A stretch of 64,000 bases of DNA, taken from Dictyostelium discoideum. Its lineage: Eukaryota. The translations under genes and the position numbers were made by a program. How positions within the stretch are numbered: position 1 is the stretch's first letter; the number at the start of each line of letters is the position of its first letter. Where the stretch lies: assembly GCA_000004695.1 (NCBI GenBank), contig CM000154.2:4608001-4672000 (forward strand), in the 5' to 3' direction. Below are positions 1-12,337 of the stretch, piece by piece. The notes beneath the pieces are model-generated. The model had not been told where the DNA came from, ran no database searches, and saw only the letters and a program-made list of their open reading frames with translations.

Positions 1-61
1 TCACCACCAACTTTTTGCTTCTATAATTTATTTTTTTAAAAAATCAATAATAATAATAATG

Positions 62-93
<32 letters not shown>

Positions 94-717
94 TCAACAA
101 CTTGATGATTTGATATTATTGTTATTTGATATTTCCAGTGTTGGATTTAATTTTGATTCATTTAATTTTTGCATTGAATTAAAATAATTTAAAGCAAACT
201 TTGAAATGATATTGAATGGCTCTTTAATATTTTTTGAATTCTTTGCAGATGTTTCAAAATAATGAACTTTATCTATAATCCTTTGATCTTCAATATTTTT
301 ACACCATTGTTCAATTCTTTCATTTGATATTGATTTATCAGTTCTAGGAATATCACTTTTTGTACCTATTAAAACAAATGGTGGTGATAATTTCTCACTT
401 TCCAAACCATTCTCTAAACATTTTGAATGTAATTCCGTTATCCATTTATCAAGATTTTTAAATGATTCTTCATTATGAATATCAAAACAAAGTACACAAC
501 AATTTGCATTACGATAGAAATGTCTATTTAAACTGGTAAATCTTTCTTGACCTGCGGTATCCCAAAAATGGTATCCAACAAGTTCATCATCGATCATTAT
601 CTCTTTATAAAATAAATCAAAAGTTGATGGACAAGTATAAATACCAAATTTTCTACCTGCGAATTCATTAAATATTGCTGTCTTTCCAGAATTATAATCA
701 CCAATCATTATTATCTA

Positions 718-767
<50 letters not shown>

Positions 768-856
768 AAATTAAAAAATGTTAACTTTTATAGTATAATA
801 TAAAAATAAAAATAAAAATCACATACCTTTAATTTCTTATTTGCTTTATATTCCAT
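94..856 (-). CDS. Rab-like Ras-superfamily small GTPase, type A copy 1. Exon 2 is 94-714 and micro-exon 1 is 827-856 (MEYKANKKLK), separated by a GTATGT...AG intron.
   Basis: 204-aa ORF with G1 GDYNSGKT, G3 WDTAGQE, G4 GTKSD and G5 ETSAK. The upstream 30-nt exon ends in a GTATGT donor, and an AG acceptor at 715-716 restores KLKIIMIGDYNSGKT, which matches the Rab N-terminus. Confidence 0.7.
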
Positions 857-1259
857 TTTTAAAAATATGTATGTATGTGTGTGTGAGATAAAAATAAAAT
901 AAAAATAAAACCAATCAAGATTTTTTTTTTTTTTTTTTTTTGGGTTGTTTTTTTTTTTTTTTTTTTTTTTATTATTAATTTTTTTTATCTAAACATTATT
1001 TTTTGTTCATTCATTTTTAAATATTATATATAATAAAAAAAAATAAAAAAAATAAAAAAAAGGGTTTAATTATTTTTGATTGTTGAGAGAGCCAAGATCT
1101 CTTTTTTTTTATTTACAAAATTTGAAAAAAATAAAAATCTGAAATATTGGAATGTTGTTTGGATATTTCTAATTATTTTTAAAAATAGAAAACAACACCC
1201 ATGAAAATCATAATTTGAACTTTTTTTTATTATTATTATTATTATTTATTTTTAAAATC

Positions 1260-1721
1260 CTACCACCAACAAATTCCTTTTGGTTTTTCAGGTTCAATTG
1301 AAATATTTATTGAATTTTTCTGTTTATTTTTATATTGATTTAATGCTATTTTTACTATAGTTTCATAAGCTTCAATAATGTTTGTTGATAATTTTGCAGA
1401 AGTTTCAAAATAATGAATTTTTTCTTTTACAATACCTTGATCTTCAATTTGTTTACACCATTGTTCGATTCTTTCTTTTGAAATTGATTTTTCAGTTCTT
1501 TCAATATCACTTTTTGTACCTATTAAAACAAATGGAACTTTCTCGTCAACTAATGTATTTGCTTCTAATTCTTTTATCCAATAAATAAGATTATTAAATG
1601 ATTGTTCATTATGAATATTAAAACAGACTACACAACAATCTACATCTCTATAATATATTTTACTATCTTCATATGCACTACCATGTGTATTCCATAACTT
1701 TTTATTATTATTATCCATTTT

Positions 1722-1753
<32 letters not shown>

Positions 1754-1922
1754 CAAACCAAATTGGTACTTACTTGTAATGATACTGTTTCATTATCAAT
1801 GATTATCTCTTTAAAGTGAAAATCAAATGGAATTGAGTTACCCCATTGAAAAAAAGGTCTACCCATATAATTCTTAATAATCGATAATTTGCCAACCATT
1901 CTATCACCAATTGTTATTATCT
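1260..1922 (-). CDS. Rab-like paralog, type B copy 1, probably a pseudo-GTPase. Exon 2 is 1260-1697 and exon 1 is 1774 to about 1922.
   Basis: Exon 1 encodes [13 protein letters not shown]...[11 protein letters not shown] followed by a GTAAGT donor. Exon 2 encodes [13 protein letters not shown]...FVLIGTKSD...ETSAK...CWW. The P-loop reads GKLS and switch II reads NTHGSA instead of DTAGQE, so catalysis is probably lost. Confidence 0.5.
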
Positions 1923-2329
1923 TTTTTTTTTTTACATCATTGTTATGAAAAAAAAAAAAAAAATTGCATATGTTTTCTTATTAATATCTGATTTTAAAGA
2001 ATTATTTTTTAATTTTAAAAAAATACCTTTAATAGTTTTCTTTTATTATCCATCACTATTTATCTGATTAATTTGAAATTTTTTAAAAAAAAAAAAAAGT
2101 GAGAAAGTCAAAAAATGAGCAGAAAAGTAGAAAAGCTTCAAACTTCTGTTTTTTTTTTCATCACACAACAAAAATAAAAAACCAACAAAAAAAAAAAAAA
2201 AAAAAAATAAAAAAAAAAAAAAATTTATTTACCAATCTTTCTTTGAAAATATTTTCAAAGTTGATAATAAAAAAAAAAAAAAAAAAATCATCATCATTGA
2301 TCAATTTATTTTAATTGGTAAAAAAAAGT

Positions 2330-2418
2330 GATATTCCAAGAACTGATAAATCAATATCAAATGGAAGAATCGAACAATGGTGTAAAAATATTGAAGATCA
2401 AGGAATTATTGATATATA
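2330..2418 (+). pseudogene. Opposite-strand fragment of a Rab-like GTPase gene encoding [29 protein letters not shown].
   Basis: The plus-strand translation matches the G4-to-G5 region of the neighbouring minus-strand paralogs. It has no start codon and no upstream exons. Confidence 0.5.
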
Positions 2419-2477
2419 TATTTTTTTTTTTTTTTTTTTTTTTTTTATTATAAATATTTTTAAAGAAAGATTGTAAT

Positions 2478-2640
2478 TTAATTTTAAAGTTGACGAGGTT
2501 GTTTTTCATATTCATGGGCTTGTAGGATCATTTCAAATTTACCAAATTCTATTTTACTAATAATGCTTCATGTTCTTGCCAACAATCAAAAATTTCTTTC
2601 CAGCTTCATCACCCAGTGTATTGACATTTTTCTTCTTTTA
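2478..2640 (+). pseudogene. Degraded fragment of the HD-domain (HDDC2-like) gene.
   Basis: Nucleotide similarity to 5800-5990, which lies within the HD-domain gene at 5721-6293, including 'gattgtaatttaatttta...gttgatgaggttgtttttcatattc...gcttgtaggatcatttcaaattt'. The fragment is interrupted and has no intact ORF. Confidence 0.5.
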
Positions 2641-2751
2641 TTATTATGATTGATATTAATGGAGCAAATTTTTATTTTATTTAATAATTATTTATTACTA
2701 TTAATTAAATATTCAAGTGATTTACCATCATCTTCTAATTAATGGTTTATA

Positions 2752-2782
<31 letters not shown>

Positions 2783-2783
2783 A

Positions 2784-3588
2784 TTAACAACAATGTCCAG
2801 GTTTTACTTCTTCAAGTAAAACAATTGCAGGTGTAGTAATTGGTGGATTTTGATTTTTATTATAATGTTTGAAAGCTAATTTAGCCGCAGCATTATATGA
2901 TTCTGTAATATTTTTAGAAAGTTTTGAAGATGTTTCAAAATAATGAACTTTATCTATAATTCCTTGATCCTCAATATTTTTACACCATTGTTCAATTCTT
3001 GCCTTTGATATTGATTTATCAGTTCTAGGAATATCACTTTTTGTACCTATTAAAATAAATGGAATACTTTCAAAACAGTACGTTTTAGTATCGTCCATCC
3101 ATTTTTCAAGACTGTCAAATGATTTTTCATTATGTATATCAAAACATAGTGTGTAACAATGTGCACCACGATAATAAGCATAACCTAATGAATGAAAACG
3201 TTCTTGACCAAATGTATCCCAAACCTAATATATTATAATTATTTTATTTTTTATTATTATTATTATTTTTTTTTTTTTTTTTTTTTTTTTTTTCAATTTA
3301 CCACTTACCATCATAGACACATGCTGATTTTCAATCATTAGTTCCTTTGAACAAAAATCAATTGAGCATGACCTATGATATATAAATTTCCCATACATAT
3401 AATTATAAAAGAGAGATGTTTTACCAACATTACTGTCTCCAAGAGTTATAACCTAAAAATAAACAAAAATAAAAAAATATAATAAAAAAAAGAAAAAAAA
3501 AAAGAAAATTAATTTTAAAAATAAATAAAAATAAGAAAAAAAAAAAAAAAAGAAATTAATATATACTTATTTACAATACCTTTAACAT
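2784..3588 (-). CDS. Rab-like small GTPase, type C. Exons are 2784-3224, 3309-3452 and 3580-3588 (MLK).
   Basis: Spliced product MLK|[15 protein letters not shown]...HVSMM|[10 protein letters not shown]...[11 protein letters not shown]...ETSSK...GHCC. G1, G3, G4 and G5 are intact, and the C-terminal CC is a Rab-type geranylgeranylation motif. Splice sites are GTATTG/GTAAGT donors and TTTTAG/TTAG acceptors. Confidence 0.65.
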
Positions 3589-3823
3589 TATTTTTTGTTC
3601 ATTCATTTTTAAATATTATATATAATAAAAAAAAAAAAAAAAAAAAAAGGGTTTAAATGATATTTTTTTTATTATTTTTAATTGTTGAGAGAGCCAAGAT
3701 CTCTTTTTTATTTACAAAATTTGGAAAAAAAAAAAAAAAAAAAAAAAATTTGAAATGTTGTTTGGATATTTCCAATTATTTTTAAAAATAGAAAACAACA
3801 CCCATGAAAATCATAATTTGAAC

Positions 3824-3855
<32 letters not shown>

Positions 3856-3868
3856 TATTTTTAAAATC

Positions 3869-4500
3869 CTACCACCAACAAATTCCTTTTGGTTTTTCAG
3901 GTTCAATTGAAATATTTATTGAATTTTTCTGTTTATTTTTATATTGATTTAATGCTATTTTTACTATAGTTTCATAAGCTTCAATAATGTTTGTTGATAA
4001 TTTTGCAGAAGTTTCAAAATAATGAATTTTTTCTTTTACAATACCTTGATCTTCAATTTGTTTACACCATTGTTCGATTCTTTCTTTTGAAATTGATTTT
4101 TCAGTTCTTTCAATATCACTTTTTGTACCTATTAAAACAAATGGAACATTTTCATTAAATAATGACATCCAATGATTAAGATTATTAAATGATTGTTCAT
4201 TATGAATATTAAAACAGAGTACACCACAATCTACATCTCTAAAATATATTTTACTATCATCGAATGCACTACCATGTGTATTGAAAAGCTTTTTATTATT
4301 ATTATTATCCATTATAATTTTTTTTTTTTTTTTTTAAACCAAATTGGTGCTTACTTGTAATGATACTGTTTCATTATCAATGATTATATCCTTAAAGTAA
4401 AAATCTAATGGAATTGAGTTACCCCATTGAAAAAAAGGTTCACCCTTAAAATTCTTAATAATCGATAATTTACCAAGAAAAGCAGAAAAACCTTCAAAAA
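3869..4500 (-). CDS. Rab-like paralog, type B copy 2, degenerate. Exon 2 is 3869-4288 and exon 1 runs from about 4355.
   Basis: Near-identical to 1260-1697, with the same C-terminal 90 aa ending in CWW. Exon 1 ([42 protein letters not shown]) has lost the GxxxxGK P-loop entirely. The 3' flank at 3590-3870 duplicates 1000-1260. Confidence 0.45.
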
Positions 4501-4539
4501 AAAAAAAAAAAAAAATTAAAAAATCAACTGGTTGGTATT

Positions 4540-4575
<36 letters not shown>

Positions 4576-4671
4576 TATTGGTCACCACCAGGTTGTTTCT
4601 TCTGTAATTTATTTTTTTATTATTATTACTACTATTATTATTAGATATTTCCAGTTTTGTAATTAATTGAA

Positions 4672-5403
4672 TCATTTAATTTTTTGTATTGAATTAGAAT
4701 AATTTAAAGCAAGCTTTGTAATGGTATTGAATGGCATTATAATATTTTGAGAAAGTTTTGCAGATGTTTCAAAATAATGAACTTTATCAATAATTCCTTG
4801 ACCTTCAATATTTTTACACCATTGTTCAATTCTTTCATTTGATATTGATATATCAGTTCTTGGAATATCACTTTTTGTACCTATTAAAACAAATGGTGGT
4901 AACAACTCCATATTTTCCAAACCGTTCTCTAAACATTTTGAATGAAATTCGTTCATCCATTTATTAAGATTTTTAAATGAATCTTCAAAGTGAAGATCAA
5001 AACAAAGTACACAACAATTTACATCACGATAGAAAGATTTATTTAAATTGGTGGTAAATTTTTCATGACCGGCAGTATCCCAAATATTGCATCCAACAAG
5101 TTCATTATCAACCATTATCTCTTTATAAAAGTAATCAAAAGTTGATGGATTTGTATAACTACCAAATTTTCTGCCTACAATTTCATTAAATATTGCTGTC
5201 TTTCCAGATCTATAATCACCAAGCATTATTATCAAAATAAAAAAAAAAAAAAAAAAAATGTTAAAACATATTTTAAATTAAAAATATGTTTTACTTTTAT
5301 ATAAAATAAAAATAAAAATAAAAATAAAAATAAAAATAAAAATAAAAATAAAAATAAAAATAAAAATCACGCATACCTTTATTTTCTTATTTGCTTTTTC
5401 CAT
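4672..5403 (-). CDS. Rab-like small GTPase, type A copy 2. The main exon is 4672-5235, with a possible upstream micro-exon at 5377-5403 (MEKANKKIK).
   Basis: Motifs [20 protein letters not shown] and ETSAK. A paralogous 5' micro-exon plus GTATGC donor is conserved with copy 1, but the corresponding acceptor AG is mutated to TG at 5236-5240. An internal ATG at 5224-5226 still gives [10 protein letters not shown]. Confidence 0.6.
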
Positions 5404-5720
5404 TTTTAAATTAATATGTATTTACGCATGTGTATGTGTGTGAGAGAGTTGAAAATAAAATAAAAATAAAACTAAAAAAATCAAGATTTTTTTTTTTTTT
5501 TAGATATTTTTTTTTTTTTATTTATTTATTTATTGTTGAAAATAAAAATTTAGGTTAATTAACACCTAAATTTTTATTTTTTTTTATTTTTTTCTTTTCA
5601 CATTTAAATTAAATTAATATTAATTTATTCAAATTCTATTTTTGTATTTACAATTTTATCTAAATTTTTTTTTTTTTTTTTTTTCTATTATTTATTATTA
5701 TTATTTTAAAAATTATTTAT

Positions 5721-6293
5721 TTATTTTCTATCACTTTCTAATTGAAGTGCAAGTGATTTAAATAATGGATGATGGAATTTCCCTCTAGTTGAATCAAAGA
5801 AAGATTGTAATTTAATTTTATTTTCAAGTTGATGAGGTTGTTTTTCATATTCGTAGGCTTGTAGGATCATTTCAAATTTATCGAAATCTTTTACTAATAA
5901 TGCTTCATTGGTTTTACAATCTTCATATTCTTGCCAAAGATCGAAAATTTCTTTTCCAACTTCACCACTTAGTGTATTGGTAATTTCAATGATTGCATTC
6001 TTTTCTAATTGATATTTTTCTTCTTTGGTAATTTTATCATGTGGTGTGAAATCACCAACTAATGATTCACCTAAATCATGTACTAATGCCATCTTTATAA
6101 TTTTCATCTTGTCAATCTCTTTACCATCTTCACCAATTAATTCCTTTTTATCTAAACACATTCCCATCATTGCCATACGATACATATGATCTGATACTGA
6201 TTCTGGTAATTCTACTCCATGATTAACCCAACCAGTTCTTTTTAATGTTTTTAATTTACCACAAATTTTAAAAAATTCTAAATAATTACTCAT
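5721..6293 (-). CDS. HD-domain phosphohydrolase of the HDDC2/YfbR type (5'-deoxynucleotidase family).
   Basis: Single 190-aa ORF with RTGW, SDHMYRMA, VHDLGE, GDFTP and LVKDFDKFEM motifs, which are characteristic of the HDDC2/YfbR HD-domain family. Confidence 0.85.
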   Translation of the reverse strand: MSNYLEFFKICGKLKTLKRTGWVNHGVELPESVSDHMYRMAMMGMCLDKKELIGEDGKEIDKMKIIKMALVHDLGESLVGDFTPHDKITKEEKYQLEKNAIIEITNTLSGEVGKEIFDLWQEYEDCKTNEALLVKDFDKFEMILQAYEYEKQPHQLENKIKLQSFFDSTRGKFHHPLFKSLALQLESDRK

Positions 6294-6357
6294 TATACTT
6301 TCTCTTATATTTAAAAATAAATAAAAAAATTAAAATTAAAAAAAAAAATGAAAAACG

Positions 6358-6392
<35 letters not shown>

Positions 6393-7080
6393 TGAAGGAA
6401 AACTAAAAATTAAAAGCTATAAAAAAAAAAAAAAATTTCAGTAATGGAAAAAAAGAAATAAAAAAAAAAAAATAAAAAAAAAAATGAAAAGTGTTTTATT
6501 ATAAGATTTTATTAGCAGCAAATTTTTAATTTTATTTTATTTTAATGTTTTTTTTTTTTTTCGTCAAAAAATATTTAAATGATATTTTGATATTATTATT
6601 TATAAAAAAAAAAAAACCAATAAAAAATAAAAGATATTAACGTCTATATGGCCAATGAAATCGTCATCAAATGTGAAAATGCGTGATCAAAACACAATTT
6701 TTTTTTTTTAAAAATTTTTCAATTTCTTTTTTTGGACTATCAATAAATTTTTAACATTGAGCAAAATTTTTAATCAATATTATTCTAATATTATTGGTTC
6801 TTTTAATTTTTGCTTTTTTTTATTTTATTTTTATTTATTTTTTTATTTTTTTCTTTTTTTTTTTTTTTTTCTTTTTTTCTATTCTTCTTTTTTATTTTTA
6901 TTTTTGATTGTAACATTATAATTTTTTTTTTTTTTTATTTTTTTTTATAAAAAAATATTAGAAGCTAAAAGTTAGTTGTTAACATTCTTTATAATTTTTT
7001 TTTTTTTTTTTTTTTTTTTAATTGTATGTTTTTTAAAAAAACAAAAACAAAAACAAAAACAAAAACATAAAGAGAATATC

Positions 7081-7303
7081 ATGGAAATTCATTATACTCC
7101 ATTTATTAGAGTTATTAATTCAACTGGAAATTTTATTGATTTCAAATTAAATATTGGAGTTACAAATATCGGGAGAGGTAATTCTAATGATATTCCAATA
7201 GATGATCCAATAATTTCTTCAATTAATTCTTCCTTATGTATGTTTAAATTATTATTTTTATTTTTATTTTTATTTTCAATATAAAAAATTTAATTTTAAA
7301 TCT

Positions 7304-7340
<37 letters not shown>

Positions 7341-7583
7341 TATCCAGATTTTGATGGTTATACATTTTCATTTTTTGATTTAACTGAAGTTAATAAAACA
7401 TATATTAAATATCAAGAAAATGAGAATCCTATATTAATAGAGCCAAATACACCATATCAAATTATAAATGGAACTAGAATTCAATTGAGTGATGATACTC
7501 AATTAATTTTATTATTTTGTGAAGATTGTGAAAATCATCACCAAACTTCTTTTACTGAAAAAAAAGCAGCTGCAATATTTTAG
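7081..7583 (+). CDS. Small FHA-domain protein with two exons. The intron is about 7238-7347.
   Basis: TNIGRGNSNDIPIDDPIISSINSS...FDGYTFSFFDLTEVNKTYIKYQ...IINGTRIQLSDDTQLILLF resembles the FHA fold signature (GR...D..L.D..ISR.H, then NGT.VN, then L.DGD.I.FG). There is a GTATGT donor and a TATCCAG acceptor. Confidence 0.55.
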
Positions 7584-7625
<42 letters not shown>

Positions 7626-7742
7626 TGGCAAAGATGGATTTTTTTTATATCTCTACCCTATCAAGTCATTGTAATATAAAACAAAAAAAAAAAAAAAGAG
7701 ATTGTTTATTTATTTATTTTTTCAAGTAGAAATAATTTAATG

Positions 7743-7777
<35 letters not shown>

Positions 7778-8308
7778 GTAATAAAAATTATAATTATTCT
7801 TTATTATTCTTTTTCTTATTGCCTCATTAAATTATTGGGTCATAGATTTTTTTTTTTTTTTTTTTTTTTTTTCTAACCTTAAAGTTATATTACTATATAA
7901 CCTTATAAGGAATTAAATTAAAATTAAAAAAAAAAAAAAAACTATTTTTTTTCTCTAAAAATATTAAAATAAAGAAATAAAAAAATCATTAGATTTCACA
8001 AAATTTAAAAGTATTTTTAGTTTTTTATTTTTTTTTTTTCTTTTCTTTGCATCCGTTTTTTTTTATTTTTTTTATTTTTTTGAATTTGGCGCCTTTTTTA
8101 GTTTATTTATTTTTTTTTTTTAAAACGAATGAAAAAACACTTTTTTTATTTATTTTTTTTTTTTTATTTTTCATAATTTTTTAAAAAATTAAAGTTAAAA
8201 AAAAAAAAAAAAAAAAAGACTTAGAAACATACACCCACCACTGCAACACATTAAAAAAAAAAAATAATAATAATAATATATATACATATATAAAATATAA
8301 TAATAAAA

Positions 8309-9140
8309 ATGACACATTTAATAGATTTATTCAAACCAATGATTCCATCATTATTAAACAATTTACATAAAGGTCAATCAGGAAGAATAGCAATTATGGG
8401 TGGAAGTAAAGAATATACAGGGGCACCATTTTTTTCGGGTATTTCCTCATTAAAGATTGGTTCTGATATTTGCCACATATTTGCACCAACAGAAGGTGGT
8501 ACAGCCACAGCTTTAAAAACAATGTCACCAGATTTAATAGTTCATCCAATTGAAAAAAATGTACATACAATAATTTATCAATTTTCAATATATATATATA
8601 TATTATCCTTTCCTTAATAATATTAATTAATTAACACACACACACTAGGATCCATCTGATATTATTCCATGGTTATTAAGTTTACATGTTATTGTTGTAG
8701 GTCCAGGTTTAGGTAGATCATCAGGTGCATGGAGTTGTGCATCAGAAGTTATTAAAGCAGCTAGAAATATAAATTTACCAATCGTATTAGATGGAGTATG
8801 TATTACATTAATGATATCCCCCCTTTATTATAATTCACTAAATAATAAACCAATTTTTTATTATTTTTTTTATTTTTTTTTATTTTTTATAAATAATAAT
8901 AATAATTATAGGATGCATTAAGATTAATTTGTGATAATTTAGATATTATAAAAGGATATGATAAAGCAATTTTAACACCAAATTTTGTAGAATTTAAAAG
9001 TCTATCAGATAGTGTAAAGAAAATGATTGGTGATACTTCAAATAATTTATTAAAACCAGAACATATTGCAAGTTGGTAAATATTAATTAATATTACGAAG
9101 AGGATGAATTGATATTACAAAAGAACTAACTTATATTTTA

Positions 9141-9219
<79 letters not shown>

Positions 9220-9578
9220 GTCTTGGTAATATTACAATTGTTCAAAAAGGTAAAGAAGATATAATAACAGATGGTAATCAAACAGTGGTTTGTGATGATG
9301 AAGGTATGCCAAGAAGATGTGGTGGTCAAGGTGATATTTTAGCAGGTACTGTTGGTACAATGTATGCTTGGTCACAACTTTACTATAAATATAATTCAAA
9401 TACGGATGATAAACCTGAATATCCAATCTCAATTATATCTGCATATGCTGCTTGTTCTTTATTAAGACATTGCTCAAAGAAAGCTTATCAAATTTCTAAA
9501 AGATCAACTGTTTCAATGGATATTATAAATCAAATTTCAAATGGATTTGAAGATTTATTCCCTGAATCTTCTAAATAA
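8309..9578 (+). CDS. ATP-dependent (S)-NAD(P)H-hydrate dehydratase (NAXD/CARKD, YjeF C-terminal domain) with 4 exons.
   Basis: [37 protein letters not shown], then VVGPGLGR, then ILTPN, then [17 protein letters not shown]. These match the conserved carbohydrate-kinase-like motifs of NAXD. Introns lie at about 8566-8652, 8801-8912 and 9078-9220 (the last contains (ATT)n). Confidence 0.8.
9132..9227. repeat. (ATT)n microsatellite inside a NAXD intron.
   Basis: About 30 perfect ATT units. Confidence 0.9.
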
Positions 9579-10084
9579 ACTTTTTTTAAATTATATTAAA
9601 ATTATTATTTTTATTTTATTTTCATTTTTTTTTTTTTTTTTTTTTTGGTAAAAAAAAAGGAAATATTTATTTTTTTTTATTTTATTTTATTTTATTTTTA
9701 ATTTTTTTGGTAAATTTAATTATTAAGAAAAACCATTTCATTTCCCTTTTTTTTTTTAATTTCTGGTAAAGGAAATTAATTAATTTTTTATTTTAAATTT
9801 AAATTTTTTTTTACCAGGCCAAGTAAAATTAATTTTTTTTAATTTTTCAAAAAAAAAAAATAAAAAAAAAAAAAAAATAAAAAAAAAAAAAAAATAAATT
9901 GCATAATTTAATTTAAAACGAAAAGGAATTTTAGTCAGATTAAAATAAAAAATCTTTTATAGATTTTCACATAATATTAAAAAAAAAAGAAAAAAAAAAA
10001 AAAAAAATAAAAACAACAACAATATTCAAATCCTCTATTAATAAATAAATAAATAAATAAATATAATAAATAATAAACATATAA

Positions 10085-11045
10085 ATGACAGCAACTAAAA
10101 CTGAAACAACTTCAACAACTTCAACAAGTTCAACAACAACAACATCATCTACAACTATTTCAGAAGTTGATGGATTAAAATTTACAATTACACCATTAAT
10201 TAAATCAACAATTTCAAATGATAATAAATTAAAAGAGAAATATTCAAAATATACAAATAACCAACAACCATTCATACCATTTAGTATATTAAAAGACATT
10301 GCAAAAACATCAACTACAAAAGTTTATTTTCAAGATTTAATTAAAGATTCTATAATTTATTATCCACCAAAAGCAGAAGTAACACCTGTATGTTTTTATT
10401 TTTCATTTCCCATTTTTTTTTTTTTTTTTAAATTTTCCACTTAAATTCTAATGATTAAATAATATAAAAAGGATCCAGAATTTATAGCAAGAAAACAACA
10501 TTTAGAGAAATTAAATAAAGAATATCAATATTCAAAATTAGTTAAAAATGTTGCTAAAAAAGAAACAGATTTAAATGAATTGTCTTCATTTAGATCACAA
10601 CTTTCAATTGCTGTAAATATATTAGTCACTTTTTTCACTCTTTTAGTTGGTGGTATTTTCGTTGGTCATAATTGGTTAAACTCTCAATTATATGTATGTA
10701 TTAACTTTTAATAACAAATAACTAAAAAATAATAATAGTGTAATAATAATAATAATACAAAAGAGACTTACTTTTTTTATTTTATTTTTTTATTTTATTT
10801 TTTTTTTTTTTTAGGGTTTAGTATGTGGTTTAGTATTAGGAATAATTGGTGTTGCTGTTGAAATTTGGTTATTTGTAATAAGATCTTCTCAAAATCAAAT
10901 GGAAAAGGATAAAGCTGAAAAAACTGAAGAAAAAATTACAGAGTGGAGAATTAGAAAGAGAACAAGAGAAATTAAAAAACAACAAAATCAATCTTTAACT
11001 GATGGCTCAAGTAGCAGCAGTAGTAGTGCTGTTAAAATTCAATAA
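10085..11045 (+). CDS. TMEM199/Vma12-like V-ATPase assembly factor (3 exons) with a Thr/Ser-rich N-terminus and two C-terminal TM helices.
   Basis: DPEFIARKQHLEKLNKEYQYSKLVKNV aligns with human TMEM199 [27 protein letters not shown]. It is followed by two hydrophobic helices (ILVTFFTLLVGGIFVG and GLVCGLVLGIIGVAVEIWLFVI). Introns lie at about 10392-10470 and 10693-10814. Confidence 0.55.
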
Positions 11046-11233
11046 ATAAAAATAATAAATAATAAATAATAAAAAAAACATCGAAAATAGAAAATGGAAA
11101 TTTTAAAAAAAAAAACAAATAATTATTATTTATTATATTTTTATTATATTTATTTATATTTATATTTAATTTATTTTTATTTATTTTGTTTTTACTATTG
11201 GTTCTATGGTTGTGAATAATTATTAAAAGTTGA

Positions 11234-12337
11234 TTATATATCATCCATTGAACTGAAAGAGGAAGAATTTGAAGAAATTAAATCGCCACTAGTTGAATTG
11301 TTTGATTCATCCAATGAGCTAATACCACTTTCATTTATACTATCATTACTTTTATCAATTGTATTACTATTTTCAGAAGTGGTTGAAGTTGTGGTTGTAT
11401 TGATAATAGTAGTTGAAACTGTAACTGTATTTGTTTGTTGATCTTGTGTATTTTCTTTGTCTTTTTCACAAATATTATCATTAACTACAACATTATTGGT
11501 ATAATTAGTGTTGGTATTATTTTTATTATTATTATTATTATTATTATTAATATTATTATTATTATTATTTCCTGTTAAATCAGAAAATGAAAGACCTTTT
11601 AAAATCATATTGCCAAAGGCTAGGACATTGCCAGAAAATGAATTACTTTGTTTGTTTGATGAACAATCTTCATCATTGACTTGTTGTTGTTTTTGATTTT
11701 GTTGTTGTTGTTCAATTTCCTTGGTTTTGTTTGAATCCTCATCTTGGTTTTCTTTTTTACGATGAAGTCCAATAAATTGTAATTGTTGATTTGGTTTAGT
11801 TTTTTCATTGTTTTCATCACCATTATCATTATTGTCACTTTTTTCATTGTCTTTTTCATTGGTTTTCCAAGTTTGATCCATTTCTTCAAAATCTCCTTTT
11901 TCAGAATCACTTTCAAAATGGTTTTCAACACTTTCATTTTCTTCATATTCATCATTTCCTTGGTTCTCTTCATCATCATAATTTTCTTCATATTCATCAT
12001 TTTCTTGATTTTCATCATTTTCTTGATTTTCATCATTTTCTTCATTTTGTACATTTTCATCATTTACTTGATCAGCACCATCTTTGTTCAATGAATTTAA
12101 ATAAGAATTTAAATTTTTTTTTGATTTTTTAAAAGATAAATTCTTTTTTTTATTTTCCAAAGTACCACTACGACTAATATAACCAGTTGTGAAACCATGT
12201 ATCAAATAAAATTTAAAATACTTTTTCTTCATTGCTTCTCTACTATATGGAGTTTTTATAAATAAAATTGGATTTGATCTTTTTACTCTTTTAATTGTAT
12301 GACGATCATCATTTAAATAACTAATTTTATTTTTCAT
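11234..12337 (-). CDS. Hypothetical acidic, Asn/Glu/Asp-rich low-complexity protein.
   Basis: Long 367-aa ORF with a non-repetitive N-terminus ([53 protein letters not shown]) followed by (NDE)n low complexity. Confidence 0.45.

Follow-up and report, generated by a model that had tools for sequence, protein, structure and literature searches.

Single substitutions in the phosphate-binding loop (P-loop) of small GTPases, such as Ras S17N and Rab7 T22N, are laboratory mutants with weakened Mg2+/GTP binding that sequester their guanine nucleotide exchange factors (GEFs). PseudoGTPases are recognized by a G-domain fold with non-conservative substitutions in the G motifs and by evolutionary retention (PMC10731463, PMC12490416, PMC13393502); those of class i do not bind nucleotide, and other classes bind it without hydrolyzing it (PMC12490416, PMC13393502). 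Described examples are Rnd1/3, CENP-M, the pG domains of p190RhoGAP, AAGAB, ArlEM, and the septin pseudoGTPases, and in the septins (PMC10731463) and microsporidian ArlEM (PMC13393502) they arose by duplication beside active paralogs. Here we analyze a 64,000-nucleotide stretch of Dictyostelium discoideum AX4 DNA (assembly GCA_000004695.1, contig CM000154.2, positions 4,608,001 to 4,672,000; "the window," numbered from its first letter), which begins inside an array of Rab-like genes of three types, A (RabN), B (RabK), and C. RabK is predicted to share the fold of the known pseudoGTPases, has their kind of G-motif substitutions and retention, likewise lies beside canonical paralogs generated by duplication, and in our judgment is probably a selected, non-hydrolyzing, Rab7-like pseudoGTPase. 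It differs from the described cases in being a young, lineage-restricted member of the Rab family in which G4 and G5 are fully intact.

The window is AT-rich (~20% GC), and its first 6.3 kb holds six genes, every one on the minus strand, in the order HDDC2, rabN2 (A2), rabK2 (B2), Q1ZXB8 (C), rabK1 (B1), and rabN1 (A1) (Table 1). The spliced models or listed open reading frames (ORFs) are identical to deposited AX4 proteins (RabN1, RabK1, RabK2, RabN2, Q1ZXB8, and HDDC2); the locus is thus already annotated and no new locus is reported here. A preliminary description of this DNA had placed five Rab-like units at essentially the positions of these gene models, lacking the nine-codon first exons of B1 and C. 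All five products score far above the 21.6-bit cut-off of the Pfam Ras family (PF00071), with E-values of 8e-37 (A1), 1.3e-30 (B1), 1.8e-39 (C), 2.3e-30 (A2), and 5e-22 (the B2 remnant), and the deposited names label all copies as Rab GTPases or Ras-related proteins. Beyond the window the array runs on with rabK3 and three more Rab-like genes. Homologs at E<=1e-20 come only from D. discoideum and close relatives, save one environmental (ENA) protein of 37% identity, in keeping with the earlier view that these duplicated genes form a lineage-specific clade.

The three types differ sharply in the motifs that handle phosphate and Mg2+. The G1 consensus GxxxxGK[S/T] is present in A1, A2, and C, all reading GKT, and is broken in type B, which reads GKL in every D. 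discoideum, D. citrinum, and D. dimigraforme copy. The G3 consensus DxxGQ is found in A1 (DTAGQ) and C (DTFGQ); A2 has lost the Gln (DTAGH), and B has lost both the Asp and the Gln (NTHGS). G4 is TKSD in all five copies in the window, as had been proposed for a mark of the clade, and G5 is SAK in A1, A2, B1, and B2. Rac-type GTPases carry TKxD, which alone is no defect, and we rejected TKSD as a sign of degeneracy. The complete set is GDRMVGKLS, WNTHGSA, TKSD, and SAK in B1, and NTHGSA, TKSD, and SAK in B2; the calls of GKL, NTHGS, TKSD, and SAK made in the preliminary description hold once exons are defined with spliced models. When B1 is aligned to Rab7 (phmmer), L stands at T22, S at T40 (switch I), N at D63, S at Q67, and T at N125, and switch II is two residues shorter, with K21, G66, D128, and SAK intact. 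The C-terminal tails differ as well, ending in the double Cys ..GHCC in C, in ..SSSC in A1, in ..ICWW in B, and without Cys in A2. From these alignments, type B appears to have lost the half of the pocket that serves phosphate, Mg2+, and catalysis, together with the double-Cys motif, and to have kept the base-recognition half. Its remodeled switch surface is nearly invariant across copies.

Despite these substitutions, the Rab fold is predicted to be complete. An AlphaFold2 model of B1 (predicted local distance difference test score 83, predicted template modeling score 0.81) contains strands beta1-beta6 and helices alpha1-alpha5 in full Rab topology, with template modeling scores of 0.85-0.89 to Rab7 and Rab9 structures. 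The closest solved relatives of the array are Rab7 and then Rab9, at 33-37% identity (E 9e-32 for B1 and 2e-40 for C to Rab7). The likeness to these late-endosomal proteins (Rab7/Ypt7 and Rab9) thus extends over sequence, predicted fold, and G-domain topology, and the CC tail of amoebozoan Rab7 (PMC2693434) recurs in type C and in the D. firmibasis B protein. On the other hand, identity is low, G4 is TKxD in the array against NKxD in Rab7, the tail is a single Cys in A and CW or CWW in B, and the clade was found only in D. discoideum and its closest relatives. We treat the array proteins as Rab7/9-like and not as Rab7 orthologs. The resemblance of RabK to Rab7 T22N and Ras S17N lies in a non-hydroxyl residue at the same P-loop position (T22 to L); unlike these mutants, RabK is natural and appears to be selected, and beyond the P-loop change it differs at D63 and Q67, has a shorter switch II, and has its lipidation tail altered. 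With a predicted G-domain fold, the non-conservative substitutions T22L, D63N, and Q67S (Rab7 numbering), and retention by selection, it falls under the working definition used for candidate pseudoGTPases (PMC10731463).

Comparison among species shows a graded history for these changes. The D. firmibasis B protein reads GKS, DSHGQ, and TKDD and ends in ..YCC; that of D. dimigraforme reads GKL and DTHGN and ends in ..ICW; that of D. citrinum reads GKL and SIHGN and ends in ..ICW; and those of D. discoideum read GKL, NTHGS, and TKSD and end in ..ICWW. The residues of phosphate and Mg2+ chemistry were lost stepwise from a near-canonical state like that of D. firmibasis, and the GKL and xxHG[SN] states, once reached, are fixed with no further decay after them. 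The preliminary description had called type B "nucleotide-binding-dead," which goes too far: type B retains the P-loop Lys, the switch-I Ser, the G3 Gly, G4, and G5, a pattern more easily explained by losing Mg2+ coordination and hydrolysis than by losing binding. One might go further and suppose that RabK is still a working switch that manages Mg2+ and GTP hydrolysis unconventionally, through the Ser of GKLS, the switch-I Ser, or a residue supplied by a GTPase-activating protein (GAP). Retention of the P-loop Lys, G3 Gly, G4, and SAK in all B copies speaks for this, as do the GKS and DxxGQ of the D. firmibasis ortholog, and some Rab GAPs (TBC domains) do supply a catalytic Gln in trans. We nevertheless give this possibility only a small chance, as the P-loop hydroxyl, G3 Asp, and G3 Gln are all replaced in D. 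discoideum, switch II is two residues shorter, and a single P-loop Ser/Thr change (S17N or T22N) already cripples Mg2+/GTP binding in Ras and Rab proteins.

Is type B maintained by selection? The locus was compared across eight genomes, and ratios of nonsynonymous to synonymous substitution rates (dN/dS) were calculated by the Nei-Gojobori method (NG86) with bootstrap 95% bounds. Exons 2 and 3 keep open frames and the AG|..|GT..AG| splice signals in 14 of the 15 translated copies, the exception being AX4 B2, whose 5' part is missing; counting AX4 rabK3, frames and splice sites of these exons are intact in 14 of 16. Exon 1 with a GT donor was found in 14 of 15 copies checked (AX4 rabK3 included); the pattern search missed that of D. 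dimigraforme, whose annotated 202-aa product starts with MDNKKKILK. Between species, dN/dS of type B is 0.28-0.43, with upper bounds <=0.65 and dS of 0.4-0.57, similar to its neighbors (0.30-0.53 for A and 0.30-0.50 for C). Among the GKL-bearing orthologs only (D. citrinum, D. dimigraforme, and D. discoideum) it is 0.28-0.32, and since B is single-copy in D. citrinum and D. dimigraforme, conversion between B copies is not the cause of this value. Constraint peaks in the N-terminal half, 69 codons that span P-loop through switch II (0.15-0.30, upper bounds <=0.72), and is weaker in the C-terminal half (0.33-0.54), so the "decayed N-terminus" attributed to type B earlier finds no support between species. 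As a lineage, the B genes do not appear to be plain pseudogenes, and purifying selection seems to act on the frame, the splice sites, the P-loop Lys, the switch-I Ser, G4, and G5.

The contrary explanation, that the B copies are unprocessed pseudogenes decaying neutrally and look intact because they are young, draws on real lesions in AX4. There, comparison with the 198-aa ortholog of strain ACTFIR shows that a 5' deletion took the promoter, exon 1, intron 1, and the opening eight codons of exon 2 from rabK2. What is left is a remnant of exon 2 without its head (4355-4476), followed by intron 2 and by exon 3 (3869-4288), and MDNNNNKK, given in the annotation as the N-terminus, comes from in-frame reading of the 3' end of intron 2. 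The earlier statement that B2 has no P-loop is not wholly right: the remnant still reads ..LGKLSIIK at 4454-4476, with everything upstream of it deleted. We regard AX4 rabK2 as a probable pseudogene, a 5'-truncated relic, on the strength of its gene structure. Outside the window, AX4 rabK3 carries an exon-2 frameshift and an internal deletion that removes G5, and in strain ACTFIW only an inverted exon-2 piece of B2 is left. Disabling lesions are absent from B1, A1, and C, and B1 is the sole intact B copy in AX4; the AX4 lesions in rabK2, rabK3, and rabN2 were not seen in ACTFIR or ACTFIW. Neutral decay could also claim the dN/dS of 0.86 between B1 and B2, but that value comes from 29 differences only and is confounded by gene conversion (below). 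Against neutral decay stand the intact majority of copies, a between-species dN/dS significantly below 1 and equal to that of canonical neighbors, the strongest conservation in the supposedly degenerate N-terminal half, and the fixation of GKL and xxHG[SN]. We consider it improbable for type B, and for the whole lineage the plain-pseudogene reading is contradicted by these findings. The preliminary description had left the choice between regulator and pseudogene open; the former suits the B lineage and AX4 B1, the latter AX4 B2 only.

Gene conversion has clearly left a mark on the array. B1 and B2 share a 312-bp block of perfect identity, comprising their last 92 codons, the stop, and 33 bp of 3' flank, amid 5' parts that are just 92-96% identical. 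The probability of 312 unchanged bases at 6% divergence is ~4e-9, and the block is thus a recent conversion tract. The identical C-terminal ~90 aa of B1 and B2 noted earlier lie inside it, and the contrast between the two halves of these copies reflects the tract and not differential decay. The B1/B2 comparison that the preliminary description had proposed (0.86, 95% confidence interval 0.43-2.9) is uninformative on selection for the same reason, and orthologs were used in its place. A second homogeneous region is a ~135-nt segment from G4 to G5 (at ~270-414 in A1, ~2950-3095 in C, and ~4785-4930 in A2), with 86-98% nucleotide identity between D. discoideum paralogs. For A1 and C the figure is 94% (90% at third codon positions), compared with 87-88% between D. 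discoideum and D. citrinum orthologs and 58-60% between paralogs elsewhere in the genes, which indicates either concerted evolution or unusually strong constraint on this stretch.

These two regions would be the starting point for arguing that the low dN/dS and open frames of type B merely reflect repeated conversion by functional A and C neighbors. We find this very improbable. The B-specific features (GKL, NTHGS, IERTEK, an IVKEK insertion, and CWW) have been overwritten in no copy, comparisons among D. citrinum, D. dimigraforme, and D. firmibasis, in all of which B is single-copy, still give 0.28-0.43, and constraint is strongest in the N-terminal half, where paralogs are only ~60% identical.

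If RabK is indeed a selected pseudoGTPase with a Rab7-like fold, it would no longer cycle by GTP hydrolysis and would resemble a natural Rab7 T22N with additional D63 and Q67 changes. P-loop Ser/Thr mutants such as Ras S17N and Rab7 T22N trap exchange factors, and on this basis we think that RabK most likely works as a constitutive, non-cycling binder, one that would act independently of a switch through its conserved, remodeled switch surface. It might sequester or scaffold a GEF or effector shared with the neighboring canonical A and C Rabs, a role that only rabK1 could fill in AX4, with rabK2 and rabK3 decayed. This specific sequestering mechanism, suggested by the mutants, we regard as unlikely. 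Less likely still is a more far-reaching version in which RabK would be a naturally evolved, permanently "off-like" or nucleotide-independent Rab7 mimic, maintained next to its active paralogs. In that version it could be an intrinsic dominant-negative of these paralogs or a buffer for their GEF or effectors, or else a decoy for bacterial effectors directed at the switch regions of Rabs, D. discoideum being an amoeba that feeds on bacteria; if the decoy version were true, host-pathogen conflict would be reflected in the way copy number turns over between strains and in the raised dN/dS of the whole array.

Several points weigh against the pseudoGTPase interpretation. The call derives from motif substitutions alone, and the GEF-sequestering mechanism from analogy only. 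A dN/dS of 0.3-0.4 is weak constraint in absolute terms, and the figure comes from simple counting over ~200 codons of an AT-rich genome. The lineage, young and narrow, covers four closely related species, and the death of two of the three AX4 B copies implies that the gene type is at least partly dispensable. Finally, no transcript-derived copies of the array proteins were found in the protein collection; this holds for HDDC2 too and is therefore uninformative on expression.

The wider array places the three gene types in a common history. Gene orders were obtained by exon-wise tblastn mapping, and for AX4 the window was supplemented by an AX4-like assembly (GCA_054883475.1, L003) that is 99.3% identical to window positions 1-12114 and extends 8.7 kb further left. 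D. firmibasis and D. citrinum have the simple order HDDC2-A-B-C. In AX4 the order is HDDC2-A2-B2-C-[HDDC2 fragment, inverted Rab fragment]-B1-A1-B3 (rabK3)-C2-D-E, and in ACTFIR HDDC2-A2-B2-C-B1-C'-A1-B3-C2-D-E, with the arrays of ACTFIW, ACTFIZ, and ACTFIY (D. discoideum or D. cf. discoideum) rearranged differently again. A neighbor-joining tree resolves clades A, B, and C with bootstrap values of 100, 100, and 84.5%, each including D. firmibasis, D. citrinum, and D. dimigraforme orthologs; the triplet hence predates these species and the extra copies are recent. We hold it highly probable that an ancestral HDDC2-A-B-C triplet was followed by tandem expansion of (A)BC units and then by deletions, scars, and conversion. 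Under this history, a single triplet would have multiplied in D. discoideum, later deletions would have removed the 5' end of AX4 rabK2 and the C-like gene that had separated B1 from A1, small scars (the HDDC2 fragment, the inverted Rab fragment, and the exon-1 relic) would have been left behind, and conversion would have produced the 312-bp tract and the homogenized G4-G5 segment. Decay of rabK2 and rabK3 in AX4 would be expected under birth-and-death turnover of a redundant array. Each of the five D. discoideum or D. cf. discoideum genomes (L003-L005, L007, and L008) has its own combination of copy number and gene order, with A2 and C' present or absent and C2/D additionally duplicated in ACTFIZ; the Rab array is a hotspot of structural variation.

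This history departs from the "nested" duplication of the preliminary description. In a truly nested arrangement, an inner B-C-B block would have been duplicated inside an outer pair of A genes, in palindrome-like order. The order A1 B1 .. C B2 A2 in the window and the greater divergence of A1/A2 (80% identity) than of B1/B2 (89%) seem to favor nesting. Yet all units are directly oriented, and past the window A1 is followed by B3-C2-D-E. A C-like gene, C', lies between B1 and A1 in ACTFIR (L004, 13147-13887) and ACTFIW (L005, 5082-5822), an exon-1 relic marks the same place in AX4, and the outgroups carry A-B-C triplets. The symmetry is explained by the window edge and the deletion of C', and the excess identity of B1 and B2 stems partly from conversion. 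Nesting is thus very unlikely, and we rejected it as contradicted by the flanking sequence and the other strains.

The units and scars themselves can be delimited by self-BLASTN (Table 1). The two A units align at 79.8% over 930 columns and the two B units at 88.7% over 927 columns (E=0 for both), and C (2848-3296) is 71-80% identical to every other copy. That flanks were duplicated along with the genes, as described earlier, was confirmed, since both units carry flanking sequence and neither match arises by chance. What the preliminary description called fragments, between B1 and C, are two pieces, the inverted Rab sequence and the HDDC2 coding fragment. The exon-1 relic at the edge of the B unit is the scar of C', deleted in AX4. 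The HDDC2 fragment is likewise a scar, left by a duplication unit whose start lay within HDDC2, and such fragments lie at unit junctions in every D. discoideum genome examined, at positions that differ between strains. The stray inverted fragment comprises exactly the G4-G5 segment.

Table 1. Coordinates of genes, duplication units, and scars of the Rab-like array (window positions).
Feature	Position	Strand	Remarks
A1, rabN1 (Q54FK5, EAL62028.1)	94..856	-	216 aa; exon 1 827-856, exon 2 94-714
A unit	114..976	-	A gene and ~120 bp promoter flank; paralogous to 4630-5537
C-type exon-1 relic	990..1016	-	MNEQKIMFR then stop, donor lost; edge of homology with C exon 1 (3584-3606)
B unit	992..1895	-	B mid exon 2 to stop, B-C spacer, C exon 1; paralogous to 3584-4476
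312-bp identity tract	1227..1538 = 3836..4147	-	100%; last 92 codons of B1/B2, stop, 33 bp 3' flank
B1, rabK1 (Q54FK4)	1260..2053	-	203 aa, tail GICWW; exons 2027-2053, 1774-1920, 1260-1697
Inverted Rab G4-G5 fragment	2301..2414	+	114 bp; 91-93% identical to A1, A2, C
HDDC2 coding fragment	2462..2623	-	nt 315-498 of 573; BLASTN 78.5% to 5796-5979; HDDC2 orientation
C, Rab GTPase Q1ZXB8 (EAS66824.1)	2784..3606	-	203 aa; exons 3580-3606, 3309-3452, 2784-3224
B unit, second copy	3584..4476	-	self-BLASTN
B2, rabK2 (Q1ZXB7)	3869..4476	-	annotated 147 aa from ATG at 4312
A unit, second copy	4630..5537	-	self-BLASTN
A2, rabN2 (Q54FK2)	4672..5403	-	annotated 184 aa from internal Met at 5226
HDDC2 (Q54FK1)	5721..6293	-	anchor gene heading the array in all eight genomes examined

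Several deposited models of the B genes deserve comment. The 203-aa B1 model equals KAM9948362.1, and the UniProt/AX4 model of RabK1 has 213 aa and a C-terminus of ..GIFQIMIFMGVVFYF in place of ..GICWW. Its tail, ..PKGIFQIMIFMGVVFYF (window 1195-1262), appears to be spliced past the conserved ..GICWW stop into the 3' flank. The tail reads ..ICWW in 11 discoideum-complex copies, ..FCWW in two, and ..ICW in D. citrinum and D. dimigraforme; this conservation favors the 203-aa model and suggests an annotation error in the longer one. Intron 2 of every B gene (1698-1773 in B1, 4289-4354 in B2) ends in an in-frame ATG GAT (AAT)n AAA AAG, whose AAT run is of very different length from strain to strain (up to ~35 Asn codons, in ACTFIY and ACTFIZ), and gene callers take its ATG as a false start, yielding "MDNNNN.." products of 147-184 aa. 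A 113-aa ORF at 4334-4675 runs from the rabN2 stop through a homopolymer-rich spacer, in frame into the headless rabK2 exon 2. It is probably a coincidence of AT-rich sequence, and could trick gene callers into an N2-K2 fusion; a 334-aa K2+C fusion model already exists among deposited proteins.

Of the canonical types, A1 is a typical Rab in its motifs (GDYNSGKT, DTAGQE, TKSD, and SAK). Its single intron is 112 nt long with GT..AG ends, and the spliced model translates exactly to the deposited protein. The usual C-terminal motifs of Rab proteins are XXCC, XCXC, and CAAX, and the single terminal Cys of RabN is not among them; it is nonetheless the last residue of type A in every species examined (..SSSC, ..PSTC, ..LFTC, ..SSTC, and ..SSNC), save that in RabN2 an earlier stop has removed it in all D. 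discoideum strains. In A2, the P-loop is intact (GKT), G3 is DTAGHE with the catalytic Gln lost, and the stop precedes the A-type terminal Cys, an out-of-frame ..SSSC relic lying downstream in ACTFIR. The intron-1 acceptor of AX4 A2 is TTG instead of TAG, which strands exon 1 (5377-5403); it is intact in ACTFIR and ACTFIW, where the products are 196 aa long. Pseudogene-type lesions are thus present in part in AX4 rabN2 (the lost acceptor) and absent from A1. The earlier description of A as canonical applies to A1 and fails for A2 (DTAGHE, early stop, lost AX4 acceptor). Type C is near-canonical: its motifs are GDSNVGKT, DTFGQE, and TKSD, with SSK as G5 in AX4. The C model is identical to the deposited protein.

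Further along the array, type E (L003 15558-16368, left of the window, and L007 17444-18343) is degenerate in a different way from RabK. Its G3 reads WDIPNK without the Gly, and a long stretch of poly-Asn is inserted; NKID and SAK are kept, and the C-terminus is ..CCCVDVSDCNY. The P-loop exon lies outside the annotated coding sequence in AX4 and is joined in ACTFIZ. To judge from these motifs, type E may represent a second, independent pseudoGTPase lineage in the same array.

A full-text literature search, with partial coverage of key Dictyostelium sources, returned no Dictyostelium study naming rabK1, rabN1, rabK2, rabN2, or rabK3; the matches to these names were unrelated uses (Entamoeba RabK, MAP3K19 as "RabK1," and rabies). 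A published Rab7/Rab9 phylogeny names just three Rab7 copies from D. discoideum and leaves the array genes unmentioned. No description of the pseudoGTPase state of RabK, the triplet origin, or the strain-specific and AX4 lesions was found in protein records or in the literature search, in which key Dictyostelium sources were incompletely covered.

The scope of these results is narrow, being a few closely related Dictyostelium species. Within it, the array is now seen as an ancestral HDDC2-A-B-C triplet that expanded in tandem and underwent strain-specific decay in the reference AX4, and three annotations can be improved, by correcting the RabK1 C-terminus, by listing rabK2 and rabK3 as relic copies, and by ascribing the shortened rabN2 to a lesion in AX4. 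The B orthologs form a short series in which a Rab, while under selection, loses its Mg2+ residues, its catalytic residues, and its prenylation motif one after another. If RabK1 is expressed and non-hydrolyzing, it would make a tractable pseudoGTPase of the Rab family available in an organism that serves as a genetic model, and AX4 has only one intact B copy.

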